Of a stretch of 60,630 bases of DNA, positions 3,534-56,192 are shown one piece after another (position 1 is the first letter of the stretch; every line of letters starts with the position of its first letter). The translations under genes were made by a program, and so were the position numbers. The notes beneath the pieces are model-generated. The model ran no database searches, was not told the origin of the DNA, and worked only from the letters and a program-made list of their open reading frames with translations. Source of the stretch: a virus (lineage: Duplodnaviria > Caudoviricetes); IMG/VR virus record IMGVR_UViG_3300012914_000001, positions 1-60,630 of that record; one strand, written 5' to 3'.

Positions 3534-3717
3534 GGCTACCCCACTGCGGGCGCGTCGTCGCGGGCAGCTGTCGCCGACAACGCGTCACGACGAGGTCAAC
3601 GGGATCGGCCTCGTCGGTCGAGCCGTCGTGCGCGATGACCCGCTCGACGCGCGCCTCGGCGCCGTCGCTATCTGCGTCGAGCAACCACTGTGCGTCGGGC
3701 ACGTCGAGCTCAGCCAT
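3526..3717 (-). CDS. Hypothetical protein
   Basis: 63-aa ORF packed between neighbours. Confidence 0.45.
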   Translation of the reverse strand: MAELDVPDAQWLLDADSDGAEARVERVIAHDGSTDEADPVDLVVTRCRRQLPATTRPQWGSHG

Positions 3718-3913
3718 TCTCTGTGCCCTGCAATCGCTGCGCCGGTTCGCTCGGTCCGCTCGGTCCGGGCAGTCCCACCGGGCAGGGCGAGCAGGCGCAG
3801 CCCGGGCCGTGGTGCTCGTCGCCGCAGCTCGGGCAGCCGCGGCAGACGCGACAGGCGCCGCGGTTCTCGCCGAGGACGACGTGACAGCGCGCGCAGCTGC
3901 GCGGGACGATCAT
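3710..3913 (-). CDS. Small Cys-rich hypothetical protein
   Basis: Multiple CxxC; ATGA coupling with the upstream gene. Confidence 0.5.
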   Translation of the reverse strand: MIVPRSCARCHVVLGENRGACRVCRGCPSCGDEHHGPGCACSPCPVGLPGPSGPSEPAQRLQGTENG

Positions 3914-4917
3914 GCCCGCCCCCTGGTGTCGAACACGCGCACGACGTCGCCCTCCTCGAGATAGAACGGGTCGGGCACGCGCTCGCCGTTCAGGTCGAGC
4001 AGGTCCTGCGGGTCCTGTTTCAGGCGCGCCGCGAGCGCGAACAGCGAGGTGACCGCGACGTCGACGACGAACGTTTTGACTCGGGCCCGGCTCGAAAACT
4101 TTTCGTCGGCTGACCCCGCGACGGTGTCCTCGAGCCGGATCGTGTTTCGGTGGAACTCGCTGCCGCGGGGTTCCTCGGTTCCGCCGATGCCGAGGTCGTC
4201 GGCGAGCTGCCGCTGCGTCTGCCGCATGCGCTGCAGTGTCCAGCGGAACGAGCGCGCGTCGGCCTCGAGATCTGCGACGGTTCGCCCCGGCGCGAGCAGT
4301 AGTGACTCGAGGTCGGTGCCCCGCTGCTTTAGCGTGAACACGTCGTCGTCGGCGACGCCGCCCTCGCGCTGCACGCTGAACACCGTCTGCGCCGCTGCCT
4401 TGGCGACGGTCGCGCGAGCGCTCGGCAGGGCGAACGAGGCACTCGCGAGGCTTTCCTCGTTATCCTCGACGAACGACAGCTGCACGATCGCCTGATCGCG
4501 CTCGGCCGTGTTCTCGATGCGCTTGCCCCGCTCGAGCCGGGCCCGGACCGAGCCGACCGTCGGCAGCGTCAGGGTGCCCGTCTGCTGCGTCCCGAGTGAC
4601 GCGACGAGCTCGCGCAACATGAACGGATACAGCTGCCGCGGGTTCTGCTCGAGGCCTCGCTCGCGGATCGAGTTATTGAAAATGGCCGTCAGCTGAAACT
4701 CGCGCTCGGTTTCGCCGGTGCTGTCGAGCTTGGCGCCGCGTCGACCGGCGCGCGCATGCCGGATTATCCGGATGCCGAAATCTTCCGACAGCTCGCCGAG
4801 CAGCGGGAACCGCACGACCGGCGAGTCGCCGACCTGCCATGACGCGATCGGGTAGTTCTCGAACAGGTACTGCCGACCCTGCCCCGGCGTGTCGCGAGGA
4901 TTGAACGCGGCGACCAT
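3910..4917 (-). CDS. DNA circularization / tail-tube initiator protein (Mu gpN-like) with C-terminal LysM-like motif
   Basis: ASWQ..RFP..LDSTG..REF..GTLTLPTVG N-domain; SLFALAARL..LLDLN..PDPFYLEEGDVVRV C-terminus; directly after tape measure. Confidence 0.75.
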   Translation of the reverse strand: MVAAFNPRDTPGQGRQYLFENYPIASWQVGDSPVVRFPLLGELSEDFGIRIIRHARAGRRGAKLDSTGETEREFQLTAIFNNSIRERGLEQNPRQLYPFMLRELVASLGTQQTGTLTLPTVGSVRARLERGKRIENTAERDQAIVQLSFVEDNEESLASASFALPSARATVAKAAAQTVFSVQREGGVADDDVFTLKQRGTDLESLLLAPGRTVADLEADARSFRWTLQRMRQTQRQLADDLGIGGTEEPRGSEFHRNTIRLEDTVAGSADEKFSSRARVKTFVVDVAVTSLFALAARLKQDPQDLLDLNGERVPDPFYLEEGDVVRVFDTRGRA

Positions 4918-8178: not shown

Positions 8179-8430
8179 TTACCCGACGCTCCGCAGTCCC
8201 GAGCTCGGGACGTCGCCGGCAGCTCTCGGCGACGCGGGCGGGAACCGCTTGGCGTGTGCGACGGACAGGGCCTCGGCGTCGCCCCGTCGCAGGCCGTCGC
8301 GCACGAGCGTCAGCTGCTCGTTCAGCCATGCGAGCGGCGAGTGCAGCGCTGCGCCGAGGCGCCGCCCGACCTTGAACGCGCGCCGGTGCTCGCCCCGGAT
8401 CTGACTCCACTCGCTGTCTGCTGCTCGCAT
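8179..8430 (-). CDS. Hypothetical protein
   Basis: 83-aa ORF with GAGGG upstream; abuts the next gene. Confidence 0.55.
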   Translation of the reverse strand: MRAADSEWSQIRGEHRRAFKVGRRLGAALHSPLAWLNEQLTLVRDGLRRGDAEALSVAHAKRFPPASPRAAGDVPSSGLRSVG

Positions 8431-8942: not shown

Positions 8943-10454
8943 TTACGACGCGATCTTTTGTGCGACGACGCCGAGTTTCGCGAGCGGTTTCACGATCGCG
9001 AGCGGCAGGAAAATGTCGACCTGCGAACCGTCGCTGCCGTTGATCTGAACGATAATCTCGCCCGCCGTGATGCTGGCGTCGAGCGCATCGCCCTGCACGA
9101 CGCCGAGGTCGACCCAACGCCCGAGCCGTGACTCGACGAACGCCTGCACGTCCTTTCGCTCGGTCACGCCGGCGGGCAGCCGGTTCTGCCCCGCAGGCAG
9201 ATCGGGGGTGATGCTCGTGTTCGCGAACTCGACGGGCAGCGCCGTTCGCAGGTCGGCGGCGACGGTGTACATGCCGTCGGTGTCGGACATGTCGAACGCC
9301 CGATAGTCCTGCGACGCGCCGTTCAGGCTGTGCGTCGTGATGGGCCGCACGAGGAACACCTCGCCGGTCAGCAGCTCGACGTCGATCGGCGTCACGCCGT
9401 TGTTCAGCAGCACCTCGGTTTCCGCGGGCGTCAGCTTGTCAGCGACGACGTCGCGCGGGCCGAGCAATCCGAGCTTGTTTCCGATGCGGTTATAGTTCGC
9501 GCGGATCGCGATCCATTTCAGCGCGTCGCCCGCCTCGGCGCCCGCGAGCTCGCCGGGCAGGTCCTCGAAATTCTGCCCGAACACATACTCGAACGTTTCG
9601 CTGTTCCGACCGATCGCGCCCGTCTGCACGTTCGCGAGGGTCCCGGTGTGCCCGACGACGCCGACCTGCAGCAGGGCCTGATTACCCGTTTCGAGGCCGT
9701 CGATGTGAGCTGCGATGCGAGCAGCGTTGCTCGTGCCGGCAGCGCTCGTCGCGTCGGCGTTCGACAGGACGCCGATGATTCGCCGGAACTCGGTCGTCGA
9801 CACCGTCGACAGGGCCGTCGAAAAGTCGGGCTCGAGCGTGCCGCCCGTCAGCGCTGCGGGGTTCACGCTGACGGCGATGCCGCCGCCGCCCTCGACGATC
9901 GAGGCGTCGATGCGAATGTCGTTACCCCACACCCCGGCGACTTTCGCCGTGTAATCGATGTCGGCCGTATCCGCTGCCGCGGTCAGCGCGAGGTCGGCGC
10001 CCTTGGCGTTGATCGCGGCGACGGCGCGGGTGACGAACGTCGCCGGGCTTTCGCCGTTGTTCCACGGGACATCGGTGATGCGACCGTGATGCCGGAACCG
10101 CACGACGCTGTTCTGCGTCGCCGGGCCCGTGAACGTTTGCGTGCCCGTCGCTGCGACGCCGGCGCTCGGCGTCGGGCTGATCGCGAACAGCTGCCCGAGC
10201 GGGTTCCGCTTGAAAAACTTTTTGGCGGCGAGGTGTCCCTCGGTACCCGGGCCGTACGCGGTCGCCGCGTCGTCGGGCCCGAACAGCTGCCGCACCTCGG
10301 TATTATTGACGAGGTTTCCGGCGCTGCCTTTCGGTGCCATCAGCAGCGCGCGCAGCACCTCGCTGCCGGGGTTTGCGGGTTCGCCGAGCAGGTCGACGAT
10401 CAGGTAAAAACCGGGCGTTTTAACCGTCGGTGCGACGGCAACGGGAATGGTCAT
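8943..10454 (-). CDS. Contractile tail sheath protein (Mu gpL-like)
   Basis: KTPGFY N-terminus, TAKVAGVWGNDI, ETEVLLNNGVTPI...RPITT sheath motifs. Confidence 0.9.
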   Translation of the reverse strand: MTIPVAVAPTVKTPGFYLIVDLLGEPANPGSEVLRALLMAPKGSAGNLVNNTEVRQLFGPDDAATAYGPGTEGHLAAKKFFKRNPLGQLFAISPTPSAGVAATGTQTFTGPATQNSVVRFRHHGRITDVPWNNGESPATFVTRAVAAINAKGADLALTAAADTADIDYTAKVAGVWGNDIRIDASIVEGGGGIAVSVNPAALTGGTLEPDFSTALSTVSTTEFRRIIGVLSNADATSAAGTSNAARIAAHIDGLETGNQALLQVGVVGHTGTLANVQTGAIGRNSETFEYVFGQNFEDLPGELAGAEAGDALKWIAIRANYNRIGNKLGLLGPRDVVADKLTPAETEVLLNNGVTPIDVELLTGEVFLVRPITTHSLNGASQDYRAFDMSDTDGMYTVAADLRTALPVEFANTSITPDLPAGQNRLPAGVTERKDVQAFVESRLGRWVDLGVVQGDALDASITAGEIIVQINGSDGSQVDIFLPLAIVKPLAKLGVVAQKIAS

Positions 10455-10781: not shown

Positions 10782-10790
10782 GCGGCAAGA

Positions 10791-11441
10791 CTACGGGATC
10801 GCATGCGCACCGGCAAGCGATGCACGGTCGACACGGCGTGCGAGCGACACGAGGAACTCGGCGAACGCCGGCGGCGTCAGGTGCGTCGCCTTGCCGCTGA
10901 CGCGCGCGTCGTGTCCTCGCCCGGTGTCGTTATGGTCGCCCGAGTGCCGCTGCGCGAAATGCGTCAGCAGCCGCGTTCCACGGGGTTTATCCCATCGGGT
11001 GTCAGGCGGCGGCTCGGCACCGACGAGCACGAGCCAAGTCAGCTTTCGGCACTCGTGCCCATATGCACTTTGGGCGACCTCGCATGTCCACTCGCCGTCG
11101 AGGCTGCGGGCCCACCCCTTGCGCGGCGGCGCGAGCAGCCCGAACCGAGGCCATGCGAGCGACCATGCCGGGTGTTCGAGCACGCCGCCGTGCCGGCGCA
11201 CTGCCGCGAGCGCTGCCGCGAACAGCCCGCCGTCGGCGCCGACCTGCATTTCAGGCCGGTTCGGGAACCGCCAAGCTACGTTTTTCGCGAGCTTGCACCA
11301 CCGCTGACACGGCGGGTGCGCGACGACGGGGTGTGGCCCGGCATAGCGAGTCGCGTCGCGTGCCTCGTCCCATATCTCGACGCCGGGCATCGACGGGTAA
11401 GGGCCCTTGCGATCGACGTACAGCGCGGCAACCGTCTGCAT
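10791..11441 (-). CDS. Putative atypical C5-cytosine DNA methyltransferase-like protein
   Basis: VVAHPPC (motif IV-like PC), GGVLEHP (ENV-like), QSAYGH...KLTWL; no clear FxGxG. Start moved to MQTVAALY, which has a TACAGT -10 7 nt upstream. Confidence 0.55.
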   Translation of the reverse strand: MQTVAALYVDRKGPYPSMPGVEIWDEARDATRYAGPHPVVAHPPCQRWCKLAKNVAWRFPNRPEMQVGADGGLFAAALAAVRRHGGVLEHPAWSLAWPRFGLLAPPRKGWARSLDGEWTCEVAQSAYGHECRKLTWLVLVGAEPPPDTRWDKPRGTRLLTHFAQRHSGDHNDTGRGHDARVSGKATHLTPPAFAEFLVSLARRVDRASLAGAHAIP

Positions 11442-13097: not shown

Positions 13098-13552
13098 TAG
13101 ACCCCGGGGTTAGGGTCGTCGGCGCTGTACAGCGGGCGATCGTTCGGCGGGTCGTCGGCATCGGGCTTGCCACCCGTGAACCCGCCGCAGCAGCCACCGA
13201 CGACGCCGGGGCAGCCCTCGTCGCCTGGAGCTGCCGGCGACGCCGTGCCGTTGCGCCGCTGCAGCACGTCAGCGACGGCGATCGGGTGCAGCCCGGGCAG
13301 CGGCAGGGAATGGTGCGGCGTGCCCGGCTCGCACGCGATGCCCTTGTTTGCGGTCATCATGGCCTCGTGCAGCTGCCGCAGCGCCGCGGTCTGATCCGGG
13401 CCCTCGGGCGTGTTCGCGATGACGGTCAGCGCGCACTGCTTGAACGCATACCGGTTTCCCTCGATGCGGGCTGACTGCTCGGGCGACGGCCGGTGATAGT
13501 CAAACGAGTCGAGGATCGCCTGCTGTCGCGGTGTGACGAAATCGTTTGCCAT
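13097..13552 (-). CDS. Acb2/Tad1-like hairpin protein (putative cyclic-nucleotide sponge)
   Basis: FDYHRPSPEQ..RI..NR.AFK..A.....PEGPDQTAALRQLHEAMMTANKGIA; start MANDF overlaps the upstream stop (TGATG). Confidence 0.65.
   Translation of the reverse strand: MANDFVTPRQQAILDSFDYHRPSPEQSARIEGNRYAFKQCALTVIANTPEGPDQTAALRQLHEAMMTANKGIACEPGTPHHSLPLPGLHPIAVADVLQRRNGTASPAAPGDEGCPGVVGGCCGGFTGGKPDADDPPNDRPLYSADDPNPGV
13219..13242 (-). repeat. 24-bp dispersed palindrome CGTCGCCGGCAGCTCCAGGCGACG (exact copy)
   Basis: Identical to the copies at 20109, 34468, 41172 and 55961. Confidence 0.85.
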
Positions 13553-15451: not shown

Positions 15452-16711
15452 TTACGCGAGGGTGTTCAGGATCAGCGCGCCGACGTTGTTCGCGATGAAC
15501 CGCGGATCCTCGCTGTAGCCCGAAACCATCATTTGCCCGGCGTGCAGACCGCGCCGCGGCAGCTCGAACTCGCGGGTGATAAACCCGGTGCCGCTCGGGC
15601 CGTTGAAACGCCAAGTCACGGCGGTCTGAATGTCCTCGGGATTGACGAGCCCTCCCGAGGGCTTTCGGATGCCGACGACCGCCTCGCCCATGATGAAGTC
15701 GATCCCGCCCGTCGACTCGTTCAGCACCTTGCCGCCGACGACATGGATCGGAGCGAGGCCCGGGATCACGATATCGCGCTTGCGCGACACGACGTCGGGC
15801 GACGGGGCATTGTCGCCGAGCATCACGCGCAGGTACGTCCGCACGTTCGCGTTCCGCAAAAACGCATTGAACACCGGCGTCGACATGAACCAGTCGGTGA
15901 TCGGCATGACCGAGTTTTCCTCGGCATCCTGCATATTCAGGATGGGATCGCCGTTCGCCGTGTTCCACTCGCTCGAACCCGCGATCGTCGTGACGTTGTT
16001 CGCGTTCCAATTGCCCGACGTCGTCAGCAGACCGCCGGTGCCAAAGATCCGCACCTCGCGCTCGAGGGCGAGGGCCCACCGGATCCGGCGCGCGAGCGCC
16101 TGCCGCGGGTCGTACGCCTTGCGCGCCGTGTGCTGCGTCACGTTCGGGATAAACCCGCCGATCGCGCGGTCGACGCAAATGAACGTCCGCAGGATGGTTT
16201 CCGGGTCGACCTCGTTAATGTCTGACTGCGTCGAGGCGAGCACGTTCACAACGCGAAAGGCGTTGTTTTCCGTGAACGTCCGGAACTGGTCCGTCAAAAA
16301 GTCGGTCGGAACGATCGGCACTGCCTCGTCGGCGCGGAACTCGTCGGGCGCGTACCCGGCGAGGAACGTGTCGATTTCCTCGGCGACGTGAACGTCGCTC
16401 GGCTGCAGGGCGAGCGTGATGCTTTGCCCTGCGCGCAGCCCGAGGTGCGGCACGTCAGTCGCGAGGGCGAGCGCGATGTTCTGCACGCCGCCGGTTGCGC
16501 CTGCGCGGCGCATGATCTGATAGGGGTCGATGCCGTACTGCGACAGCGTCTGCAGCTGCTGCAGGCCCGGCAGGCCATGGCCTGAAAGGAAACCGCCGGC
16601 GCCGGGCTGCCCCTGCGTCTGCGACAGCAGCTGACGAATGTCGGCGGTCAACGCGCCGGGCACCGGCATCAGGCCCGCAGCGGCGGGCATCCTGAAAATG
16701 TTCGGGTTCAT
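15452..16711 (-). CDS. Major capsid protein
   Basis: 419 aa after protease and decoration genes; EFRADEAVPIVP, LEREVRI, WNTANGDPI (major capsid E-like); followed by a terminator. Confidence 0.85.
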   Translation of the reverse strand: MNPNIFRMPAAAGLMPVPGALTADIRQLLSQTQGQPGAGGFLSGHGLPGLQQLQTLSQYGIDPYQIMRRAGATGGVQNIALALATDVPHLGLRAGQSITLALQPSDVHVAEEIDTFLAGYAPDEFRADEAVPIVPTDFLTDQFRTFTENNAFRVVNVLASTQSDINEVDPETILRTFICVDRAIGGFIPNVTQHTARKAYDPRQALARRIRWALALEREVRIFGTGGLLTTSGNWNANNVTTIAGSSEWNTANGDPILNMQDAEENSVMPITDWFMSTPVFNAFLRNANVRTYLRVMLGDNAPSPDVVSRKRDIVIPGLAPIHVVGGKVLNESTGGIDFIMGEAVVGIRKPSGGLVNPEDIQTAVTWRFNGPSGTGFITREFELPRRGLHAGQMMVSGYSEDPRFIANNVGALILNTLA

Positions 16712-18867: not shown

Positions 18868-18961
18868 ATGTCGCAACGTTACGCGCGAGCTGCAGTATCG
18901 GCAAGCCAACCGGGAACGTCGCGCCGGTACCCGAGCGACGTCGTCGCGCTGACGACGAGCG

Positions 18962-20023: not shown

Positions 20024-21903
20024 GGCGCGAGCGTGCCGGGCGCGTCGTCCTCGTCGTCACCTGGACCGGGCGACGGCGGGTCGTTCCCATCACCGGGCGA
20101 CGGGGGTGCGTCGCCTGGAGCTGCCGGCGACGGGGGTGCCTCGTCGCCACGCGTTCTCGCCGACGGGGCACCGATCGGTTTCCAAGCGATAGGCCAGTGC
20201 GCCTTGCCGTCGGGTCCCATCTCGACGGTCCGCTCGCGCTCGATGCCGCACAGCGGGCAGCGGTTCTGCCGATTATGGGCGCAGCGGTCGATCTGCAGCT
20301 CGGTCATGCGCTCGGCGAGGCGGGCGACGTCGCCCGGGTCGTCGACGTCGTCGCCCATGGAGGCGCCCGACGGCAGCTGCGGGGGTTCGCCACCGGCAGG
20401 CAGCTGCCCGGGCCCGGGGGGTGCCCCGTCGTCGACGTTGATCGCCGGCATGGGCGAGTCGAGCAGCTCGCCCGGTTTCGGCGCCTCGCCGGCGGGATAC
20501 ACGACCTCGGGCCCGGGCGTCGGCGCCTGCTGACCGAGCTCGGCAGGCCGCTGCGTCCGAATGATGTACGGCTCGTCGGGCCGCACCTCGCGAATGCCGA
20601 CCCGCTGCCGGTATTCCTCGAGCGACACGGGCACGCCGGCGTCGATCGCCTTGCGCAACCGGTCGGCCTCGACGCTGCGATCGAGCGGGGGGTCGGTGCG
20701 CAGGATGAATTTCGGCGCGTGCGTGACCGCCTCGGGTCCAAAGTTCACGACGACGATCGCGTCGGTCAGGCCGTTCTCTGCCGACTCGCCGATGCGGCGG
20801 GCGTCGCCGGCGACGAGCAGATCCTCGCCCGACTGCTGCACGTTCGCGGTCTGCGCGCCGAGGCCGGTCGCCTTGGCATCGGTCGTCAGCACGTTGCCGA
20901 GGTACAGTTTCGACAGCACGTCGCGGGCGTCAGTGATCACGGCCGCGTGCACCTGCCCGGCGCCTTGCTCGGGCTGCACGATCTGCACGTCGACGTTCGC
21001 CGGCATGCGCGCCGTGTTGTGAAACCCGAGCAGCGTCAGCGCCTGAAACCCCTGCTGCAGCGCCTCGACGTTGATCGCCGGCATGCCGGGCCCGGTGCGC
21101 GGCGTCAGAATGCGCCAAGGCTTGCCGAATATTTCCATCAGCTCGAGCTGCTCGCGCACGCCGAGCCGGGCGAAAAAAGACCAGTACAGCGTACGGTACG
21201 CGAGGCCCTCGCGTTCCTGGTAATCGCCGAACATGCGCGGCCGGAACGTCAGGAACTTGTAAGGGATCGCCTCGACGGGAAACCCGACGTCGAGGAAATT
21301 GCCGACCTGCCGCATCGGGTCGATGACGCGCAGGTCACGGTCGGGCCCGAACGACAGGCGCCGGGGGTGGATCCAGTGCAGGTCGCGCACGTTCCACTCG
21401 CGCCCGTACCGGTACCATTCGATCTCGCTGCAGGCCCTGCCGTCGAAAATACCCCAGGCCAGATCGAGCAGGCGGTCGCGAAAGTTCGGGATCTGCTCGA
21501 GCTGCTCGCGAACGACGGCGGCGTATTCTTTCGCCCGGCCCTCGTCGACGCGGCGCCCGGTCGCCGGCTGCACCTCGTAATCGAGGGCGGCGATGCGGTT
21601 CAGGCGTTTCTGCAGCAGCGCCGACACGTGCCCGTCGAGCGCGATCGTCTCGCGGGCGAGGTCCGTCAGCCGCGACATGATGCCCATGTTCGCGGCCTTT
21701 ACCGCCGCATCGATGCGGTCGAGGTCGAGGCTGCGACCGAACTGCGGGCGATACTGCTCGTTCGCCGGGACATGCCCGGCGAAGTAATCACGCATCAGCG
21801 AGGCCGAGCTCGGCAGCGGCTGCGGGGCAAACGAGGTCGCTCGGAGCTCGTGCGCGGCGCGTTCGTCAACGCGGTAACGTGTGATGTCAACGGCTGCTTG
21901 CAC
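20020..21903 (-). CDS. Portal protein (DUF935, Mu gp29-like)
   Basis: DGHVSALLQKR, GRACSEIEW, EIFGKPWR, LSKLYLGNVLTT. Confidence 0.9.
   Translation of the reverse strand: MQAAVDITRYRVDERAAHELRATSFAPQPLPSSASLMRDYFAGHVPANEQYRPQFGRSLDLDRIDAAVKAANMGIMSRLTDLARETIALDGHVSALLQKRLNRIAALDYEVQPATGRRVDEGRAKEYAAVVREQLEQIPNFRDRLLDLAWGIFDGRACSEIEWYRYGREWNVRDLHWIHPRRLSFGPDRDLRVIDPMRQVGNFLDVGFPVEAIPYKFLTFRPRMFGDYQEREGLAYRTLYWSFFARLGVREQLELMEIFGKPWRILTPRTGPGMPAINVEALQQGFQALTLLGFHNTARMPANVDVQIVQPEQGAGQVHAAVITDARDVLSKLYLGNVLTTDAKATGLGAQTANVQQSGEDLLVAGDARRIGESAENGLTDAIVVVNFGPEAVTHAPKFILRTDPPLDRSVEADRLRKAIDAGVPVSLEEYRQRVGIREVRPDEPYIIRTQRPAELGQQAPTPGPEVVYPAGEAPKPGELLDSPMPAINVDDGAPPGPGQLPAGGEPPQLPSGASMGDDVDDPGDVARLAERMTELQIDRCAHNRQNRCPLCGIERERTVEMGPDGKAHWPIAWKPIGAPSARTRGDEAPPSPAAPGDAPPSPGDGNDPPSPGPGDDEDDAPGTLAP
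20109..20132 (-). repeat. 24-bp dispersed palindrome (exact copy, portal C-terminus)
   Basis: Exact match; degenerate neighbour at 20142-20165. Confidence 0.85.
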
Positions 21904-29242: not shown

Positions 29243-29901
29243 TTGACGGCCTCGCCCTCGCGCACGACCCGCAGCGCCTCGACCCCGCCCTCGACGACCG
29301 CCGCGAGCTGCTCGTCGGTCAGGCCCTCGAACTCGTCCTGCGATGTCAGCTTGACGTTTTTCGGCGGCTCGATGCCGTTGTAACGACCGAACGCCTCGGC
29401 CGCATCGAGTGCGACTTTCATTGCCGCGACGCTGCCGTTCTCGAGCATGCGCAGCCGCACGGTCCGGAACGTGAACAGCACCTCGGCGAGCGCCTCGTCG
29501 CGCGCCTGCGGGTTGCTACGGAAAGCGTGCCGCAGCAGCCGGTTCGCCTCGCTCGCGATGTGCTCGACCGTGCCCGGGTGCACACCCCATTTCTGCGCGA
29601 GGGCCTGATGCGACCTGCCCGGTTCCCATGCGCCCGACTGCATCAGCTGCAGGACGACGTCGATTCGCTGCTCGCGCGGCGTCCTCGACGCCTGCCACAC
29701 CTCGAACTCGTTCGGCGCTGCCGGTGTCTCGTGGTCCCGCCCGTCGCGAGCTGCTCTCGGCGACTTGCGCCTCGCTGCTTTGGGGGCTTTCGACCCCTGC
29801 CCTTTCGTCGCGCGCGCGCGTGACCGATCGGCAGCAGGGCGCCGTTTCACCCCCCCGGGTGACTTGGCCTTTCGCCGAGGCGGTTTCTGTCGCTGTGTCA
29901 T
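29239..29901 (-). CDS. terS: Probable terminase small subunit
   Basis: First gene of the late operon, upstream of terL; basic N-terminus, HTH-like LAQKWGVHPGTV, LTDEQL C-terminal motif. Confidence 0.65.
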   Translation of the reverse strand: MTQRQKPPRRKAKSPGGVKRRPAADRSRARATKGQGSKAPKAARRKSPRAARDGRDHETPAAPNEFEVWQASRTPREQRIDVVLQLMQSGAWEPGRSHQALAQKWGVHPGTVEHIASEANRLLRHAFRSNPQARDEALAEVLFTFRTVRLRMLENGSVAAMKVALDAAEAFGRYNGIEPPKNVKLTSQDEFEGLTDEQLAAVVEGGVEALRVVREGEAVN

Positions 29902-32892: not shown

Positions 32893-33432
32893 ATGATCAC
32901 GCTGCGCACCTGCTGCCTCGCCCTGCTGCTCGCCGCCTGCGGCGGCGTCGCCGTCGACCCGTCGAGCGAGTACTCGGGCGACGAGGCCGAGTCGCCTGCG
33001 GCCGCGGTCGACGAGGTCGCGCCCGCCGCGCCCGAGCCGGCGCCCGCACCCGAGCCTGCCCCTGCCCCGTCGCCGGCAGCTCCCGTCGACGAGCCGGAAC
33101 CCGCACCGTCGCCCATGGAAGGCGACGACGTCGTCATCATTCTGCCGACGACCGACACGTTCGAGCTGCCCGCCGAACCCTGCACGAGCGAGGACGCGCC
33201 CGAGCCGTCGACGCCGAGCGACGAGTCGCCGGAGTACTCCGACGACGCCGAGCTGCTCGCGAACGGCGAGGCCTGCGACGCCGACTCGCTGTGCGCGAGC
33301 GGGGTGTGCGACCCCGTCCTGCGCGCCGGTGTCGACACGACCGAGGGCTACTGCATCGAGCTGCCCGCCGACGGCACGACCCATTTCTGCACGTGGATGT
33401 TTGGCGCCTGCATCGCACTCGACCGCCGATGA
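32893..33432 (+). CDS. Lipoprotein with Pro/Ala linker and Cys-rich C-terminal domain
   Basis: Lipobox LLLAAC|GG; (PAPE)n linker; NGEACDADSLCASGVC. Confidence 0.75.
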   Translation: MITLRTCCLALLLAACGGVAVDPSSEYSGDEAESPAAAVDEVAPAAPEPAPAPEPAPAPSPAAPVDEPEPAPSPMEGDDVVIILPTTDTFELPAEPCTSEDAPEPSTPSDESPEYSDDAELLANGEACDADSLCASGVCDPVLRAGVDTTEGYCIELPADGTTHFCTWMFGACIALDRR

Positions 33433-34388: not shown

Positions 34389-34876
34389 GGGTTCGCCGCG
34401 ACGACGGTGCCGTCGGGCAGCGTCATCGCCGGCTCGCCGGGTTCGGGATACCGGTACCCCTGCACGTCGTCGCCTGGAGCTGCCGGCGACGGCTCGTCGT
34501 CGAGGCCCGAAAGGTCGTCCTCGTCGCCGAGGTCGAACGAGCTCGGCAGCCCGAACACCTGCGGCAGCGGCGGCGGCACGTCGGTTTCCGCCTCGTGCGG
34601 GTCGATCTCGCGCGACCGTTGCGTCGGGCTGGCGACCCGGCGTGCCTCGTTCCGTTCGTCGATCGCGAGCTGCAGCGCGTACTGCAGGCCCTGCTCGGCG
34701 CGATCCATCGCGAGCCCTCGCTGCACGAGGGACATGGTTTCGTCGTCGACCTTATCGATGACGGCGAGCAGGTCGAGGCGGAACTCTGAGCTCGCTCGAG
34801 CGATGACCCGCTCGCGTCGCTCGACGAGTTTCGTCAGCGCGGCCTGCACGCGCTTGGCTCGATCGAGCGCCTGCAT
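34385..34876 (-). CDS. Hypothetical protein
   Basis: Helical N-terminus, acidic tail; coupled to neighbours. Confidence 0.65.
   Translation of the reverse strand: MQALDRAKRVQAALTKLVERRERVIARASSEFRLDLLAVIDKVDDETMSLVQRGLAMDRAEQGLQYALQLAIDERNEARRVASPTQRSREIDPHEAETDVPPPLPQVFGLPSSFDLGDEDDLSGLDDEPSPAAPGDDVQGYRYPEPGEPAMTLPDGTVVAANP
34468..34491 (-). repeat. 24-bp dispersed palindrome (exact copy)
   Basis: Exact match. Confidence 0.85.
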
Positions 34877-35262
34877 CAGGCGGCGCCCTCGACGACCGGT
34901 TCAGCCTCGTCGTTCGCCGGCTCGTCGGTGTCATCGCCGGCCGCGGCCGCCTTGCCGTCGCGCTGACGCTTACCCGCGAAACCGTCGAACTCGAGCGCGG
35001 TCTGCGCGTCGACGTTCGCCTCGTGCGTGTCGACCTCGTCGGCAAGCACGCTGATCTTTTCGCGCAGCAGTTTCAGCTCGCCGTTGTATTTCTCGGCGGC
35101 CGCCGACTTTTTGCCCTCGACCTCCTCGGCCTTTTTCAAATACGAGGCGAGCTCGTCGCAGCGAGCTCGCCACTGCTCGTCGGTCAGCCTGACGCGAACG
35201 AGGCCGGTGCCCTCGTCAGTTTTCCCCGCCCGTTTCTCGTTTCCTTTTTTGCGTGCTGCCAT
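34876..35262 (-). CDS. Hypothetical coiled-coil protein
   Basis: VRLTDEQW..RCDELA..; GAGGA SD. Confidence 0.7.
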   Translation of the reverse strand: MAARKKGNEKRAGKTDEGTGLVRVRLTDEQWRARCDELASYLKKAEEVEGKKSAAAEKYNGELKLLREKISVLADEVDTHEANVDAQTALEFDGFAGKRQRDGKAAAAGDDTDEPANDEAEPVVEGAA

Positions 35263-36058: not shown

Positions 36059-36223
36059 TTATCGAACGGCACGCATTCGCGTTCTGCGGGCCTCGAGCGA
36101 GGCCGCGACGGACGGGTCGAGTTTTTCGAGAACGCTCGAGGACGCCCCTAAAGCGGCGCGGCGCGAGGCCGGATCGCCGTCCGCACGCGCGAGCAGGCGT
36201 GACACCCGAGCAGCGGGGGTCAT
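36059..36223 (-). CDS. Small hypothetical protein
   Basis: 54 aa; ATGA coupling with the rep gene. Confidence 0.4.
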   Translation of the reverse strand: MTPAARVSRLLARADGDPASRRAALGASSSVLEKLDPSVAASLEARRTRMRAVR

Positions 36224-37359: not shown

Positions 37360-37452
37360 GATTATGCCCACCCCTGGACTGTGCAAACGTACCGCACCGT
37401 TCAGGTACACTTTGTGCCTCGCATTTTTCCGGCCGGCGTGTCAATGTCCCAT

Positions 37453-40569: not shown

Positions 40570-40760
40570 TGTTCGGGATCGAGCCGCCCGACGACGACGA
40601 GGACGACGCGCCCGACAGCGAGCGGACCCTGCGCGCCGATCATGAATACGATCAGCAGCGCGACGACGCGCTGACCGACCGCCTGCGCGAGCTGCGGCAG
40701 CGGCTCGAGGCCGACCTCGACGAGCGCGACCCCGGATGGCGCGCCGAGGTGCCGTTCTGA
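40569..40760 (+). CDS. Small acidic protein
   Basis: Coupled; ends in EVPF, resembling an SSB C-terminal tail. Confidence 0.5.
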   Translation: MFGIEPPDDDEDDAPDSERTLRADHEYDQQRDDALTDRLRELRQRLEADLDERDPGWRAEVPF

Positions 40761-41356
40761 TGGCAGGTTATGATCGCCCGCTCCACGACCTGACCCCTTG
40801 CCCGCGGCTCGATGGCAGCCGCGTGTGCATGCGCTCGCTCGGCGCGAGTCGCTGCCATTACTGCGGGCGCGACCTGCCGATGTCGCACCCGACGGTCATC
40901 GAGGACCGCGTTCCCGAGGGGCAGGTCGTCGCAGCGCCTCGACACTCGGTCATCTCTGCTGCTCGTCGCATCAAGCGCGCGCTGTACGCCGAGGCCGACC
41001 GCGTCGCGGGCATCGATACGAGTCACCTCGGCGGGTCCGGGCCGATGCCCGCGGGCCGCCTCGCATGGTTCCGCGAGCAGGCGCGCAGCGCGCTGTCGCT
41101 GCGCGAGGCCGACGAACTGATCGAGGCGCTGCCCGAGCTGCTCGACGAGGTCGACCGGCTGCGCGCGCTCGCGTCGCCGGCAGCTCCAGGCGACGCGGCG
41201 CCGACGACGTTCGCACTGGCGTTGTCCTATGACCCGGCGATAAGCCCGGTCGTGCTCGAGCACTGCCTCGCCTGCGGCATGACGCTCGGGCAGCTACCCG
41301 GCGGCGGGCGCACCTGCGTCCGCTGCGACGTCGACGACGAGGGAACCGACGGATGA
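40760..41356 (+). CDS. Hypothetical protein with two zinc ribbons
   Basis: CHYC, CLAC..CVRC; LIEALPELLDEVDRLR (Ead/Ea22-like helix). Confidence 0.6.
   Translation: MAGYDRPLHDLTPCPRLDGSRVCMRSLGASRCHYCGRDLPMSHPTVIEDRVPEGQVVAAPRHSVISAARRIKRALYAEADRVAGIDTSHLGGSGPMPAGRLAWFREQARSALSLREADELIEALPELLDEVDRLRALASPAAPGDAAPTTFALALSYDPAISPVVLEHCLACGMTLGQLPGGGRTCVRCDVDDEGTDG
41172..41195 (+). repeat. 24-bp dispersed palindrome (exact copy)
   Basis: Exact match, on the + strand within a + strand gene. Confidence 0.85.
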
Positions 41357-43508: not shown

Positions 43509-43796
43509 GTGAACGCGCGGCTGACGGGTTCGCCCGAGCCGTGCACCCGCCTCGGCGCCGTCGACGCAGGCTGGCGTTTCGCCGTCGCGAACCCGGGCGA
43601 GGTGCTCGTGCTGCAGCACTCGGGCGCCGAGGGCAATCGGTGGCAGCTGCGCGCGCACAGCCTCGAGGTCGGCGTCGCCGTCGTCGCGTTCAAGGCGCAC
43701 CGGCAGAACGTCGTGCACGGCGCCGTTGCGCTATGGCACGCCGGGCATGTGACTCGGTTCGACACGGCCGCTGACCTGCGGACGGGCACCGGTTGA
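43509..43796 (+). CDS. Hypothetical protein
   Basis: 95 aa; coupled to neighbours. Confidence 0.55.
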   Translation: MNARLTGSPEPCTRLGAVDAGWRFAVANPGEVLVLQHSGAEGNRWQLRAHSLEVGVAVVAFKAHRQNVVHGAVALWHAGHVTRFDTAADLRTGTG

Positions 43797-45923: not shown

Positions 45924-45952
45924 GTTTCAGCTGTAACGTTCCACGCGAAACG
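45924..45952. repeat. 29-bp repeat containing parS-like CGTTCCACGCGAAACG (copy 1)
   Basis: 28/29 identical to 46979-47007. Confidence 0.6.
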
Positions 45953-46814: not shown

Positions 46815-46972
46815 ACCGCACCGTTCTCGCCGTCCTCGATGTCGTCGCGGCAGCGTACCTCGTCGCGTTCGCCGCCGCGTGCGTCGCCGGGCTGCAGGTG
46901 TTCCCGGCGCCGTTCGGCGTGCTCGTGCCCGCAGCGCTCGGCAGTGTCGCCGTGATCTGGATCCTGCGATGA
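46811..46972 (+). CDS. Small two-TM membrane protein (not in ORF track)
   Basis: 53 aa, two hydrophobic segments; ATGA overlaps on both sides. Confidence 0.55.
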   Translation: MNRTVLAVLDVVAAAYLVAFAAACVAGLQVFPAPFGVLVPAALGSVAVIWILR

Positions 46973-47694
46973 CCGGGCGTTTCAGCAGTAACGTTCCACG
47001 CGAAACGCGCGCCTGCGCATGGTGTCGCCGGCAGCTCTCGGCGACGGCCCCCGGGTGGCAGCGGTTCTGCGACAAACGCTGCCGTCAGACCGAATGGCGT
47101 GCGCGGCAGGTGTCCCTGATGGAGGGGCGCGACGGGCAGCCTCGCCGGGTCGGGTACGCCGATCCGCCGTACCCGGGCATGTCTTACCGTTGCTACGGCG
47201 ATCAGCCGAACTATGCCGGCGAGGTCGATCATGCCGAGCTCGTCGAGCGGCTGCGGGGTTTCGACGGGTGGGCCCTGTCGACGTCAGCCAAAACGCTGCG
47301 GCAGGTGCTGCTGCTGTGCCCGCCCGAGGCCGACGTCGCCGCTTGGGTCAAACCGATCGGGGTCAGCCGCAAAACGCGCGGGCCGCACAACACATGGGAA
47401 CCGGTGATCTACGTGCCGGCGCGCCTGCGGCAGCCCGGCATGCGGGACTGGATCGCGGCGATGCCCGCCCGCGGCGGCGACTCGGACCTGCTCGGGCGCA
47501 AACCGCTCGCGTTCTGCCGGTGGCTGTTCGAGCTGCTCGGCGTCGCGCCGTGCGACACGTTCGTCGACATGTTCCCGGGCAGCGAGGTCGTCACCCGGGC
47601 GTATGCCGCCGCGTCGCTGCAGGCCTCGGGCGACGAGGTGTCTCGACGCGTTCTCGGCGACGGGTCGATCGAGTCGTTCAGTTCGAGGGTTTGA
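46969..47694 (+). CDS. Amino-DNA methyltransferase-like protein (N6A/N4C, beta-type motif order) with N-terminal zinc finger
   Basis: YADPPY, AWVKP, WEPVI, KP..FC.W, VDMFPGS; N-terminal CAWC..FCDKRCR. Confidence 0.75.
   Translation: MTGRFSSNVPRETRACAWCRRQLSATAPGWQRFCDKRCRQTEWRARQVSLMEGRDGQPRRVGYADPPYPGMSYRCYGDQPNYAGEVDHAELVERLRGFDGWALSTSAKTLRQVLLLCPPEADVAAWVKPIGVSRKTRGPHNTWEPVIYVPARLRQPGMRDWIAAMPARGGDSDLLGRKPLAFCRWLFELLGVAPCDTFVDMFPGSEVVTRAYAAASLQASGDEVSRRVLGDGSIESFSSRV
46979..47007. repeat. 29-bp repeat containing parS-like site (copy 2)
   Basis: GTTTCAGCAGTAACGTTCCACGCGAAACG. Confidence 0.6.
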
Positions 47695-48124
47695 CGCCGC
47701 AGCCCTCGCGCAGCAGGGCCTCGACGTGACGCACGTCGAGGCGCCCGGCGTCGATGATTAGCTGCGCGGCGTCGAGTCGGCGCAGCTGTTCCTGCTCGCG
47801 GAACAGCCGGCGGTCGGCGCGCTCGCGCTCGAGCACGTGCCAAAAGGCGCCGCCCGTCAGCAGCAGGACGAACACGCCGGCCCATGCCGCGAGCTTGATC
47901 GTCATCGAGGCACTGCGCACCTGCTGTTTCGTGTCGGCCGCCTCGCGCAGAACGTCGAGCATGTCGGCGCTGCGCTTGTCCCATGCGTCGAGGATCGGTT
48001 TCATTTGCGTCCCGAGCTCGGTACGCACGGCGTCGCGGATCCATAGCTGCTGCGTCGAGGTCGGCGGCGGCGCGTCGTCGTCCTCGATGACGAGCTCGAG
48101 GCGGGGGTCGGTTCGGTCAGTCAT
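47678..48124 (-). CDS. Single-TM protein, last gene of the lysis region
   Basis: LAAWAGVFVLLLTGGAFW between helical segments. Confidence 0.6.
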   Translation of the reverse strand: MTDRTDPRLELVIEDDDAPPPTSTQQLWIRDAVRTELGTQMKPILDAWDKRSADMLDVLREAADTKQQVRSASMTIKLAAWAGVFVLLLTGGAFWHVLERERADRRLFREQEQLRRLDAAQLIIDAGRLDVRHVEALLREGCGVKPSN

Positions 48125-50344: not shown

Positions 50345-50854
50345 TCAGCTGCCGAGCAGCGTGCGCATTTCGTTCAGCGCGCCTGCCCATCCGTCGTTGT
50401 CGTACTGCGTCGTTTCCGTCGCGACGACGGCGCGGCATCCGTTGACGTCGCGCACGGCGATCATGCGCTCGTGCACGAGCTGCGGCCGCGGTCCGGTTCG
50501 TCCGTCGGGCAGCGTGCCCATGCCGCCGTTGACGACGCACCGGACGATCCATGAATGCCCGCCCTCGCTCGGCAGCGTCACGGCGACGGTGCCGTCGACG
50601 GATATCGGCGACACTGCCGGGCCCGACGTCGCGCCGACGAGCGTCAGCGCCGGCGCACCGGGACTGCAGCGCGGCGGGTTCGCGGCGATCCCGAGCTCGG
50701 GATCGAACCCGTCGGCGCTGAATACTTGGAACAGCACGGTCGACACCCCCGCCGGCGGCAGCTGTTTCAGCCGCAGCACGAGCTCGGCGTCAGGATCGGC
50801 GTCGAACCCCTGATCGCTGCTGTCGGCGTTGATCGTAAAAAGCGCGTCTGCCAT
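50345..50854 (-). CDS. Stand-alone paralog of the N-terminal anchor domain of the adjacent fibre
   Basis: MADALFTIN.DSSD.G..WIVRCVVNGG..LVHER.IAVRD.NG..ATETTQYD.DGWAG shared with 50864-52174. Confidence 0.8.
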   Translation of the reverse strand: MADALFTINADSSDQGFDADPDAELVLRLKQLPPAGVSTVLFQVFSADGFDPELGIAANPPRCSPGAPALTLVGATSGPAVSPISVDGTVAVTLPSEGGHSWIVRCVVNGGMGTLPDGRTGPRPQLVHERMIAVRDVNGCRAVVATETTQYDNDGWAGALNEMRTLLGS

Positions 50855-50863
50855 GGGTTCCGT

Positions 50864-52174
50864 TTACAGCGGCTCGAGCTGAAAGTCGTCGATGTGGGCA
50901 AAGTGACCGAACGACGCCGTGCCGACGCACCTGACATTCGCGTAAACCGGGTTAGTCGGCGGCAGCTGCGCACCGTTGCCGAGCGCCGTCGAGTGCGTCG
51001 TCCGCAAAACGCCGCCGATATAAAACCGCCATTCGTTCGCGCTGACCCGCTCGATCTCGAGCTCTTGGAACAGCCCGGATGTCGTCGCGACACCGGTGTC
51101 TTTCGCGACCGCGACGCCGCCGCCGGTGCTCGTGTAGCTATGCCAATTGCCCGGTGCGCCTGCAGCTAGCCCGCCCGCGTAGTCATAAAAGAAACCCGCG
51201 AACACCTCGGCCTCGACAGAGAACCCAGACGCCGAGCAGAGTGCCGTCCACATTTGCCCGGCGTTATTGACGGGCGATCCAGGGGCAACGCGATAACGTA
51301 CCTTGCTCAGCCGCGACTGACCGATGCCGCTGCGACCGACGCAAATGCCGGCCATTGAACTATTGCCGACGCCCGCCGTGATGCGGACGGCGCCGATGCA
51401 GGGATCGCCGACCGGCTGATCGCAGAAACAGGTGCCCTGCCCGCTGAACTCGAAAAAGCTCCACCCTAGATCGCCGATGTTCGCCGTAAACGACGACGCA
51501 TTGATCGGCGAGGAACTCGATGCGGCGTTGCCGCCGACGAACGTGTCGCGAATGACGCTGCTGCCGCCGCCGCCTGCCGGACCCTGCGGACCCGCGGGTC
51601 CTGTCGCGCCTGTCGCGCCGGGCGCGCCGGGGGCACCGTCAGCGCCGTCAGCGCCGTCCGCACCCGCAGGGCCCTGCGGGCCCTCGATGACGGCGAACTC
51701 GCCTGCCCATCCGTCGAGGTCGTACTGCGTCGTTTCCGTCGCAATGATGGGCCGCACGCCGTTGCCGTCGCGGACCGCGATCAGCCGCTCGTGCACGAGC
51801 CGGGGGTCGAACACGACGCGCCCGTCATCGAGCGTCGCCTGCCCGCCGTTGACGACGCACCGGACGATCCAGGCGACCCGGTCGTCGGCAGGCAGCTCGA
51901 CCGTGACCTCGCCGTCGACGCTGCTCGGCGACACGTTCGGGCCCGACGTCGCGCCCTGCAGGACGAGGTCGGGCGCGCCCTTGCTCTTACGCGGCGGGTT
52001 CGACAGCGGGTCGAGCGAGGGGTCGAACGCCGCGGCGTCCCACACCTGAAACCGCACCGTCTGCACGCCGCTCGGCGGCTGCGTTTTGAGCTGCAGCACG
52101 AGCTCCTCGAGCGGGTCGGCGTCGTACCCTCGATCGCTGCTGTCGCCGTTGATCGTGAAAAGCGCGTCTGCCAT
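50864..52174 (-). CDS. Short collagen fibre with lectin/concanavalin-like head
   Basis: Anchor domain, G-X-Y run, beta-rich head (DTGVA..ELEI..RFYIGGVLRTTH). Confidence 0.75.
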   Translation of the reverse strand: MADALFTINGDSSDRGYDADPLEELVLQLKTQPPSGVQTVRFQVWDAAAFDPSLDPLSNPPRKSKGAPDLVLQGATSGPNVSPSSVDGEVTVELPADDRVAWIVRCVVNGGQATLDDGRVVFDPRLVHERLIAVRDGNGVRPIIATETTQYDLDGWAGEFAVIEGPQGPAGADGADGADGAPGAPGATGATGPAGPQGPAGGGGSSVIRDTFVGGNAASSSSPINASSFTANIGDLGWSFFEFSGQGTCFCDQPVGDPCIGAVRITAGVGNSSMAGICVGRSGIGQSRLSKVRYRVAPGSPVNNAGQMWTALCSASGFSVEAEVFAGFFYDYAGGLAAGAPGNWHSYTSTGGGVAVAKDTGVATTSGLFQELEIERVSANEWRFYIGGVLRTTHSTALGNGAQLPPTNPVYANVRCVGTASFGHFAHIDDFQLEPL

Positions 52175-53572: not shown

Positions 53573-53587
53573 GTCGGGTCCTTTCGT

Positions 53588-55449: not shown

Positions 55450-55452
55450 CGC

Positions 55453-55950
55453 TTACCACCCGAACAGAACGACGGTGCTGCCGTCGACGAGGGCGTTCGC
55501 TGAATTGAACACGCACACCCGGATCCGATTCGTTTGCGCGTCGACCGCCGCCTGCGCCTTTCGCACGACGCTCGGGTCAGGGTCGATGACGTGCGCGGTC
55601 GCCCACAGAAACGAAATGGCGGCGTCGTCGCCGGCCTCGTCGGGCACCGGGGTCGGGTACGCGATCAGGTAATCGCCGGTCGCCGACCGCGTCAGGGACG
55701 GATCGTCGTACGGCGGCGCGGTCAGGCGTTTCGGGTTCCACGTTTCGACGCGCGCGACGACGCTCGGGCTCGGCTCGGCGACGAACGCGAGGGCCGTGCG
55801 CGGGGTGACGAGGCCCATGCCCGCGCACTGCCACATGATCAGGTTCGCGATCCGTGCGTCCCATTGCCGGCGCGCGTCGCGCACCGGCGAGCTGTTCTCG
55901 ACCTCGGGCCCGAACGAGTCACGGTCGGGCCGCAGTGGCCACCCCGTCAT
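55453..55950 (-). CDS. Hypothetical baseplate-region protein
   Basis: TRSATGDYLIAY tail-type motif; ATGA coupling. Confidence 0.65.
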   Translation of the reverse strand: MTGWPLRPDRDSFGPEVENSSPVRDARRQWDARIANLIMWQCAGMGLVTPRTALAFVAEPSPSVVARVETWNPKRLTAPPYDDPSLTRSATGDYLIAYPTPVPDEAGDDAAISFLWATAHVIDPDPSVVRKAQAAVDAQTNRIRVCVFNSANALVDGSTVVLFGW

Positions 55951-56192
55951 CGCGCACCCGCGTCGCCTGGAGCTGCCGGCGACGGGGCGGCTGCGGGCGG
56001 CAGGGGCGGCTCGGCCTTGCAAGCGTCGAGCGTGACACCGACGGCGGCGAGCGGCGTGCACACGTCGACCCCGAACGCGAACGCCGCGGGCACTGCCGCA
56101 GCGAGGACGATCGCGAGCACGGCGAGGATCTGGTTTCGCCGGCGCAGCGCTGCAGGTTTGGGTTCGGGCGTCTGCTCGGTTTCAGGGGTCAT
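55947..56192 (-). CDS. Small membrane protein inserted in the baseplate module
   Basis: RRRNQILAVLAIVLAAAVPAAFAF; AAAGGA SD. Confidence 0.6.
   Translation of the reverse strand: MTPETEQTPEPKPAALRRRNQILAVLAIVLAAAVPAAFAFGVDVCTPLAAVGVTLDACKAEPPLPPAAAPSPAAPGDAGAR
55961..55984 (-). repeat. 24-bp dispersed palindrome (exact copy)
   Basis: Exact match. Confidence 0.85.

Follow-up and report, generated by a model that had tools for sequence, protein, structure and literature searches.

Dispersed 24-bp sites with inverted arms in genes of an uncultivated soil phage and of related phages

The phage genome and its repeated 24-mer

The stretch of DNA considered here (the window, 60,630 bases) is the entire virus record IMGVR_UViG_3300012914_000001, which has identical 123-bp ends and a G+C content of 69% and represents an uncultivated soil phage. 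The 24-mer CGTCGCCGGCAGCTCCAGGCGACG occurs exactly five times in this window and not once in any of 100 dinucleotide shuffles. Its two outer arms, held 12 nucleotides apart, define a larger family of dispersed sites which the phage has in common with two related complete or near-complete phage records (g1 and g2, with portals 77% and 58% identical to that of the window, respectively), with fragments of a fourth phage (g3) and with a 35-kb record (G005) bearing the same sites as g2. The five exact copies lie as follows:

13219..13242, - strand: in an open reading frame (ORF) with a match to phrog_1454 (unknown function); encodes SPAAPGD; the segment is missing from the g1 ortholog
20109..20132, - strand: in the disordered C-terminal tail of the portal protein; position common to g1 44234 and the g2 16438-16531 cluster
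34468..34491, - strand: near the C-terminus of ORF 34385-34876
41172..41195, + strand: in ORF 40736-41356, which is rich in zinc ribbons; no site in g1 where the two align
55961..55984, - strand: at the C-terminus of the 81-aa membrane ORF 55947-56192 (- strand); the next gene starts 11 nt further on

The copy at 41172 is the only one on the + strand, and each of the five stands on the sense strand of its own gene and encodes SPAAPGD, as the original prediction had claimed. They are identical at 24/24 bases and their flanks are unrelated, so that the repeat is just 24 bp long. It consists of inverted 7-bp arms about an asymmetric 10-bp centre and is not a full palindrome; of the “hidden palindrome” proposed earlier, two conserved arms of 6–7 bp remain, and the 12-bp spacer between them is free. 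In a k-mer census of the window all dispersed 20-mers with at least three copies derived from the 24-mer or its immediate flank.

When up to three mismatches are allowed the window contains eight matches (adding those at 8211, 33068 and 47023) and the shuffles none. These and the weaker members of the family are:

8211..8234, + strand: near copy, 2 mismatches; inverted relative to ORF 8179-8430 (- strand); encodes SPRAAGD
33068..33091, + strand: near copy with right arm TCGACG, 2 mismatches; ORF lipoprotein-like, the site falling in its Pro/Ala linker
47023..47046, + strand: near copy, 3 mismatches, left arm TGTCGC; in the methyltransferase zinc ribbon (CxxC...CxxxC); encodes CRRQLSAT
18917..18940, no strand assigned: arms-only site between genes; a sigma70-like -35 follows 12 nt downstream; common to g1 42129 and g2 21522
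29742..29765, - strand: arms-only site in the basic N-terminal extension of a helix-turn-helix (HTH) protein upstream of the large terminase; SPRAARD; spacer the same as at g1 52929
47612..47635, + strand: arms-only site at the methyltransferase C-terminus (SLQASGD); identical in g1 12729; position common to g2 50550
20142..20165, - strand: degenerate member with one mismatch in the arms; separated by 9 nt from the copy at 20109 (33 nt between starts)
47639..47662, + strand: decayed member, 2 arm mismatches; the g1 counterpart at 12756 has an intact core
3556..3579, no strand assigned: possible decayed copy; left arm and most of the class-1 spacer kept, right arm with 2 mismatches; no support from relatives
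10826..10849, - strand: near-site TGTCGC-N12-TCGACC; a second sigma70-like promoter (10788-10816) has its -35 9 nt downstream

Among the variants listed in the original prediction, those at 8211, 33068 and 47023 stand as near copies, and both the peptide given for 47023 and the inverted orientation given for 8211 were correct. The variants at 29742 and 47612 share the arms only and are conserved in relatives. Of those described as looser, 20142 has a single arm mismatch; 3556 and 47639 have two, which is a noisy level (74 such N12 matches, against 42–113 at other spacings). The exact 24-mer found no match in the viral contigs searched, g1, g2 and other relatives included, nor among 185,579 species genomes, and the idea that it serves as a decoy for a host factor gained no support from the latter search.

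The gene content of the window is that of a contractile-tailed phage, with these landmarks:

8943-10454: tail sheath
20020-21903: portal
27438-29111: large terminase
56205-57785: baseplate wedge

The phage also encodes RuvC, a YqaJ exonuclease, RecT, an SMC-like ATPase, an endolysin and a methyltransferase (46969-47694) with a DPPY motif and a zinc ribbon at its N-terminus. Approximately 84 proteins are predicted, of which 36 were scanned against Pfam and 30 against PHROGs (the scanned proteins, below), and the majority of those not named here had no family match in these scans. The isolated phages nearest to it show merely 25–32% identity in sheath and terminase. Megablast with the window gave no match, a search of the species genomes with the sheath alignment found no prophage or host relative, and the baseplate alignment added no further relatives. 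Four sequencing runs, all in the form of contigs, yielded neither molecule ends nor informative variants at the sites.

ORFs 50345-50854 and 50864-52174 (- strand) are adjacent, have a common N-terminal domain and both start with MADALFTIN; many of their 15-mers match at an offset of 1320 bp, as if a module for a tail fibre or for receptor binding had been duplicated in tandem. The neighbouring ORFs 35216-36004 and 36220-37410 (- strand) both match one single gene in g1 and in g2; their weak PHROG matches are to lambda O-like replication initiators (E 0.001–0.008), and they may represent a duplicated initiator. Dense 9-bp-periodic repeats (GCGCTGACGGCGCTGACGG...) occupy 1-780, 51570-51660 and 60420-60500, that is, the tail-fibre region, crossing the record ends, and apparently code for collagen-like Gly-X-Y.

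A family of sites in related phages

The family to which the 24-mer belongs, CGTCGC-N12-GCGACG, is wider, and the five identical copies are its most uniform members. Paired GTCGC...GCGAC is enriched at a 12-nt spacing only, with 11, 12 and 16 occurrences in the window, g1 and g2; each of the other 40 spacings tested (0–40) gave 0–6, and an everted control gave 4, 2 and 1. In a de novo scan of all 6-mer arms at spacings of 0–20, CGTCGC-N12 ranked top in each of the three genomes. The strict sites number 39 in total (11, 12 and 16), 34 of which are coding. Codon-preserving shuffles, a comparison proposed in the original prediction, were run 200 times for each genome; they keep every protein and leave the intergenic DNA, and so the intergenic sites, unshuffled. 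They gave means of 5.6, 4.7 and 5.5 and maxima of 10, 8 and 10, and the observed numbers were never reached. The symmetrised consensus is CGTCGCC-NNN-RG|CY-NNN-GGCGACG, in which each arm holds exactly one A/T pair, symmetrically placed, and the centre shows a weak RG|CY preference (G at position 12 in 49/78 symmetrised half-sites).

A more distant clade of phages with the same G+C content (portal approximately 50% and sheath 61–62% identical) has no sites in 21.5 and 18.5 kb of DNA running from portal to tail, a region in which the window has four strict sites. The family is therefore clade-specific and not a by-product of base composition. A degenerate scan of viral contigs (CGTCGCC-N10-GGCGACG) matched at least 117 stretches; among the matches listed, the loci of g1, g2, G005 and g3 hold 2–5 sites, and six others (L041, L045, L049, L097, L139 and L141) hold two each.

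Seven syntenic positions, comprising 20 sites, hold a site in two or three of the three genomes; the original prediction had proposed such a comparison with relatives. Two of the positions fall in the methyltransferase (its zinc ribbon and its C-terminus), one in the portal tail and one at the baseplate junction; the others are the ORF that follows the tail tube, the gap upstream of gene 17248-18867 and the N-terminal extension of the HTH protein that precedes the terminase. The membrane ORF 55947-56192 (- strand) is itself conserved in g1 and g2, and the 55961 position is common to g1 23229 and g2 39965; that of 8211, after the tail tube gene, is common to g1 32273, g2 30737 and g3 fragments. 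Across the seven positions the spacer is 54% identical and the flanks 41–44% (ungapped); arm identity follows from the definition of a site, and the evidence lies in recurrence at the same place. Furthermore, g2 has two strict tandem sites at the junction matching 10826 of the window, and in g3 fragment L108 two strict sites lie beside the match to the ortholog of the 33068 ORF, in the stretch matching the 5' part of the gene.

Sites also turn over. The copies at 13219, 34468 and 41172 have no site at the aligned g1 position. In the g1 ortholog of ORF 34385-34876 the site sits elsewhere within the same gene, a move which would be expected of turnover under selection. In both the window and g1 the sites are densest around the methyltransferase gene. 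Relative to these two genomes the whole late block of g2 (terminase to lysis, approximately 41 kb) is inverted, and the breakpoint splits the g2 methyltransferase into an N-terminal piece at approximately 8.6–8.9 kb (+ strand) and a C-terminal piece at 50524-50898 (- strand). G005 has the same inversion junction.

Since most sites are coding one might suppose that the selected feature is a peptide, S-P-x4-G-D, or that the sites are merely a product of codon or dipeptide bias in a G+C-rich genome. The motif does sit in disordered tails, and 29/34 coding sites use one reading frame. That frame is mostly explained by codon compatibility: from the arm codon-phase counts across all genes approximately 69% of N12 pairs are expected in it, and the other frames require the less-used Arg codons CGT (6%) or CGA (10%). 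Among peptides of the form S-[PL]-x3-[GS]-D in the three proteomes, 22/23 use TCG for Ser and GAC for Asp and only 1/23 uses AGC for Ser, despite genome-wide Ser usage of 48% TCG and 36% AGC. The constraint therefore acts on nucleic acid and not on peptide. In addition, 5/39 strict sites are intergenic and three are read in another frame; the site in the methyltransferase zinc ribbon, itself read in another frame, keeps its Cys codon as TGT, the rarer Cys codon in such genomes, in the window, g1 and g2. The original prediction had placed the constraint on DNA or RNA, and the codon test and the kept TGT agree with it. As for codon bias, spacings N10 and N13 are better suited to the commonest codon phases and yet are not enriched, and the related phages of like G+C content are free of sites over 21.5 and 18.5 kb. 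We consider a selected peptide or a codon by-product very improbable indeed: codon usage largely refutes the former, and enrichment at N12 alone, the outcome of the synonymous shuffles and the lack of sites in the related clade led us to reject a codon or dipeptide artefact. The shuffles, the spacing profile and conservation in relatives likewise bear out the earlier view that the sites are dispersed and non-random. What we have is a real, conserved, DNA-level signal.

The spacers behave differently from the arms. In the window 21/55 spacer pairs are identical at 10/12 positions or more (null mean 0.07, maximum 2). In g2 7/120 are so (null mean 0.15, maximum 5), built on another spacer, GCCGGCGCCGG; in g1 2/66, which is within the null maximum. 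At the shared positions the window carries its own spacer, and g1 and g2 carry others. Judged by these comparisons the five identical copies are a lineage-specific homogenised subset of the family. Spacer types also recur between genomes: that of 20142, ACGCGTTC, is found at g2 16531, g1 12756 and g3 L108. A related short repeat, GTCGCCCATGGA(A/G)GGCG..., stands at 7932, 20349, 33107 and 37588 of the window and reads S-P-M-E-G-D or the reverse; in two of its four copies (7932 and 33107) the arms are 9 nt apart, not 12. The g1 and g2 N12 sites with spacer CGCCGTCCATGG contain the same 12 bases as this repeat.

What might read the sites

The sites tend to fall at the ends of genes. Of the 38 considered, 25 lie no more than 160 nt upstream of the next co-directional start, with a median of 83 nt; random positions gave 22% and a median of 420 nt, and 0/2000 random sets reached the observed values, although the sites are not independent, owing to synteny. 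Sigma70-like promoters are very rare in the three genomes and two of them are conserved:

18876..18904, - strand: sigma70-like promoter TTGCCG-N17-TAACGT; conserved in both g1 and g2; 9 nt separate its end from the called start codon
10788-10816, - strand: second sigma70-like promoter TTGCCG-N17-TANNNT; conserved

Strict sites lie 2–20 nt upstream of the -35 at four of the six instances of these two promoters, and a fifth instance has the window near-site with one mismatch. The order gene end, site, promoter, next gene fits the role of a barrier or an operator. Where a start codon is called close by, the two promoters end 7–9 nt before it, which suggests that late transcripts are leaderless or nearly so. 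A 15–17-mer, (GA)CCCTTGAACGAAAT(C), occurs three times (at approximately 31497, 32522 and 43795, + strand) in two + strand gene blocks; it includes the -35-like TTGAAC and may mark early promoters.

Our best explanation, held with middling confidence, is that the sites act in double-stranded DNA as operators, or much as stoperators do, and are bound by a dimeric or tetrameric protein. The 24-mers would be members of a clade-specific dispersed family of duplex sites, recognised by a protein specific for their sequence, whose two identical DNA-binding lobes would each grip one 6–7-bp arm, the arms being approximately 18 bp apart. Such a reader would most likely be phage-encoded and would control transcription genome-wide through the sites: those adjoining the few sigma70-like promoters would act as operators, and those at gene ends as roadblocks or insulators in the manner of stoperators. 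Because the genome is almost entirely coding, sites would survive at codon-compatible spots, where common codons write Ser-Pro...Gly-Asp in disordered tails and linkers. Within each lineage the spacer would then have drifted to one preferred sequence, through co-evolution with the reader or through copying between sites. Homogenised spacers are what one would expect if sites follow a reader particular to their lineage, and both an extended reader specificity differing between lineages, as with T7-group promoters, and copying between sites fit the concerted spacers. The family of sites, its conservation, the constraint on DNA and the placement are observed; it is the binding of a protein, and its effect, that we infer.

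Several points weigh against this explanation. The sample comprises only three independent genomes plus fragments. No regulator family was detected in the scanned proteins, the sole exception being an HTH match below threshold (E 0.16), in the protein encoded just before the large terminase, and no integrase, repressor or partition (ParA/ParB) family was detected in them either. Half-sites approximately 18 bp apart from centre to centre are unusual for simple dimers, five copies that are identical even in an asymmetric spacer exceed what a symmetric dimer needs, and in predicted RNA folds the arms pair into a short hairpin. Placement at gene ends could reflect tolerance of a 24-bp constraint rather than function. 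The gap between site and -35 is 12, 20 and 14 nt in the three phages, that is, there is no fixed activator geometry; a -10-like element (TANNNT) stands 25–50 nt downstream of only 5/39 sites. Since most sites lack a promoter-like element downstream and the gap varies, they are not simply activator boxes. Any general link between sites and sigma70-like promoters was rejected, given these five -10-like elements and full TTG-N16-18-TANNNT elements within 130 nt of only 3/39 sites.

The dimeric-protein binding site of the original prediction remains the best reading; the readers proposed for it do not fare well. The proteins at 24504 (“AP2”) and 30137 (“RHH”, ribbon-helix-helix) match no Pfam or PHROG family and have no tblastn match in g2, the phage with most sites, and are therefore disfavoured; relatives of the 24504 protein are confined to close phages and carry no domain call. 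The zinc-finger methyltransferase (46969) is disfavoured because its gene is split by the inversion in g2 and in the independent G005. Proteins of unknown function common to all three phages remain candidates, among them the products of ORFs 26899-27393, 29239-29910, 34385-34876, 34876-35262, 43509-43796 and 47678-48124 and of small conserved ORFs, and language-model and structure look-alike searches with two such conserved proteins gave nothing usable. With no integrase, repressor or partition family among the scanned proteins and no prophage relative, a silencer of lysogeny is unlikely; a temporal regulator or an organiser is more likely.

The sites could instead act in RNA or single-stranded DNA, as hairpins in polycistronic transcripts, read by a sequence-specific RNA-binding protein or nuclease that would process, stabilise or translationally couple messages at gene junctions. 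In its favour a hairpin (stem 6–7 bp, loop 10–12 nt) forms in the minimum-free-energy structure at all 10 sites folded, the same stem would arise from either orientation, sites are concentrated just before the next gene start (some only 11–23 nt away), and 7/8 class-1 copies in the window are co-oriented with transcription. The folds themselves, however, have z-scores from +0.4 to -2.9, unremarkable at 8/10 sites (+0.4 to -1.6), a stability that is usual in DNA so rich in G+C; at only 2/10 did no more than 1/200 shuffles fold as well. There is no covariation, because the arm sequence is invariant. Across 34 unique sites the inner spacer positions are complementary in 50% (pair 7-18), 56% (pair 12-13) and 18–38% (the four pairs 8-17 to 11-14, near random), a mean of 2.3/6 pairs against 1.8 for random windows, and at pair 7-18 combinations compatible and incompatible with U-G are about equal (5 vs 3). 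In g2 the dominant spacer is found both along and against the direction of transcription, so that the loops would differ, and Rfam 15, CRISPR repeat families included, yielded no match at family gathering score across the whole window. It is the sequence and not the pairing that is conserved, which favours readout of duplex DNA, and we think an RNA element unlikely. Intrinsic terminators were rejected: no T-run follows the sites, and most lie inside ORFs, 30–320 nt before the stop codon.

A second alternative makes the sites the recognition sequences of a DNA enzyme, be it a site-specific nickase or endonuclease, a recombinase (with an 11-2-11 or 12|12 layout about a central G|C) or a modification enzyme. 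The conserved outer arms, each with its one symmetrically placed A/T pair, and the weak central RG|CY preference (49/78 half-sites) are compatible with this. Cutting and repair would explain why spacers are alike within a genome, homogenisation being the outcome of repeated break-and-copy repair, and the phage does encode YqaJ exonuclease, RecT, RuvC and an SMC-like ATPase. Site density is moreover highest around the methyltransferase gene in the window and g1, but that gene is split in g2 and G005, and g2 is the richest in sites. No recombinase, HNH, GIY-YIG or nickase family was recognised in the scanned proteins, the sole such matches being two weak HNH-like PHROG matches on a zinc ribbon (E 0.001–0.007), and direct identical repeats would lead a recombinase to delete essential genes. 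The breakpoint of the g2 inversion lies inside the methyltransferase ORF and not at a site, and the notion that inversion breakpoints coincide with sites was rejected on that ground. We regard an enzyme as quite unlikely.

The identical copies might also be a product of copying, either as a tiny in-frame mobile cassette or by microhomology-templated gene conversion, any present function being secondary. All 24/24 bases are identical between unrelated flanks, the copies at 13219, 34468 and 41172 lack a site at the aligned g1 position, and spacer types reappear at loci that are not homologous and across genomes. Against this, the 13219 copy lies within a segment of approximately 40 aa that is missing from the g1 ortholog, those at 34468 and 41172 align as substitutions, arms of 6–7 bp offer very short homology, and copying alone leaves unexplained an old, syntenic and selected family that shares the arms only. 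A clean insertion cassette of 24 bp (8 codons) was not seen in the ortholog alignments and was rejected. Copying as the whole explanation seems to us distinctly improbable.

The two ideas could be combined. The sites may form an undescribed genome-wide phage control network, written into ORFs in the one codon-compatible frame and homogenised by templated copying. A break or a stall followed by copying through the 6–7-bp arms would spread one 24-mer and even seed new sites, so that the 24-mer would be an operator and a minimal self-propagating in-frame element at once. We offer this combination as a doubtful conjecture.

If a protein does read the sites, this clade of soil phages possesses a genome-wide regulatory or organising system comparable to stoperators and built differently, with dyad arms, a free spacer, positions mostly inside genes and an apparently non-temperate host phage. 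The sites are a clean natural case of a DNA signal and a protein code in the same bases, which can be measured in the serine codon fixed as TCG, the retained TGT and the use of one reading frame. Conserved arms with a homogenised, lineage-specific spacer offer a handle on co-evolution of site and reader, or on an undescribed copying mechanism, and the arms provide a simple marker for members of the clade in metagenomes.

Comparison with known systems

The original prediction knew of no described family for the 24-mer, and the limited body of literature searched, without supplements, likewise gave no description of this motif. In manner of working, stoperators and the elements of P2-type late promoters come nearest, although the family belongs to neither. 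The sequence of stoperators tracks the lineage's own reader. In Cluster A mycobacteriophages, according to the portions of PMC9283540 that concern us, they are asymmetric 13-mers of temperate phages, read by a two-domain monomer in strict dependence on orientation and proposed to stop both initiation and elongation. As there, many copies of one short site are spread genome-wide at promoters and gene ends (PMC9283540); stoperators are also described at short intergenic gaps in the same account, and the present sites lie mostly inside ORFs. Unlike stoperators these sites are 24 bp long, with dyad arms, a free 12-bp spacer and no clear orientation rule, and, unlike stoperators with their known repressor, they are accompanied by no repressor or lysogeny module in the scanned proteins.

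P2-type late promoters, as outlined in the relevant part of PMC3931495, carry a TGT-N12-ACA dyad recognised by the zinc-finger activator Ogr, in four copies upstream of late operons. The dyad, the unspecified 12-bp spacer, the several copies and the contractile-tailed phage are all points of likeness (PMC3931495). Unlike the P2 element, of which there are four copies, one per promoter, the present family has 11–16 copies, a -10-like element at 5/39 and a variable gap to the -35, and its arm sequence is GTCGC, not TGT. Zinc-ribbon ORFs do occur in the window (40736-41356 and the N-terminus of the methyltransferase).

The promoters of T7-like phages are approximately 23 bp long and identical or nearly so within a genome; related phages share a core but differ in the rest. 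These promoters point the same way as the genes, are often located in the 3' end of the upstream gene, are non-palindromic and need a phage RNA polymerase. They resemble the present sites in the concerted sequence within a genome; the present sites have dyad arms, and neither an unexplained ORF of polymerase size in the ORF list nor a sigma family in the scanned proteins was found in the window.

With regard to geometry the sites match the operators of NikR, which have 6–7-bp half-sites with 11–16 bp between them and are bound by a tetramer with two ribbon-helix-helix lobes. Distant short dyad half-sites about a non-conserved spacer are the present layout too, and NikR demonstrates that one protein can read it. 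NikR operators number one or few per genome and serve a metal regulon, and no NikR-like or ribbon-helix-helix family was detected in the scanned proteins.

Partition sites were also compared. An SMC-like ATPase is present, and the scanned proteins include no ParA/ParB family. An 18-mer, TAACGTTCCACGCGAAAC, occurs twice, approximately 1 kb apart (45934-45951 and 46989-47006, + strand), and g1 conserves the second copy, which shortly precedes the zinc ribbon of the methyltransferase. The core of the 18-mer, GTTCCACGCGAAAC, is similar to the parS consensus, and no ParB gene was found among the scanned proteins.

Finally, the REP elements of RAYT transposases and the attC sites of integrons share with the present sites a dispersed distribution at gene ends and an imperfect palindrome in which the outer cores are conserved and the centre varies. 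They are longer, lie between genes, function as folded single strands and depend on RAYT or IntI, neither of which was recognised among the scanned proteins. Unlike them, the sites described here are 24 bp long, show no extended pairing and are syntenic and stable inside core genes. Set beside these systems, the family is most likely a new form of dispersed phage operator sites, unusual in its embedding in coding sequence and in its lineage-specific homogenisation.

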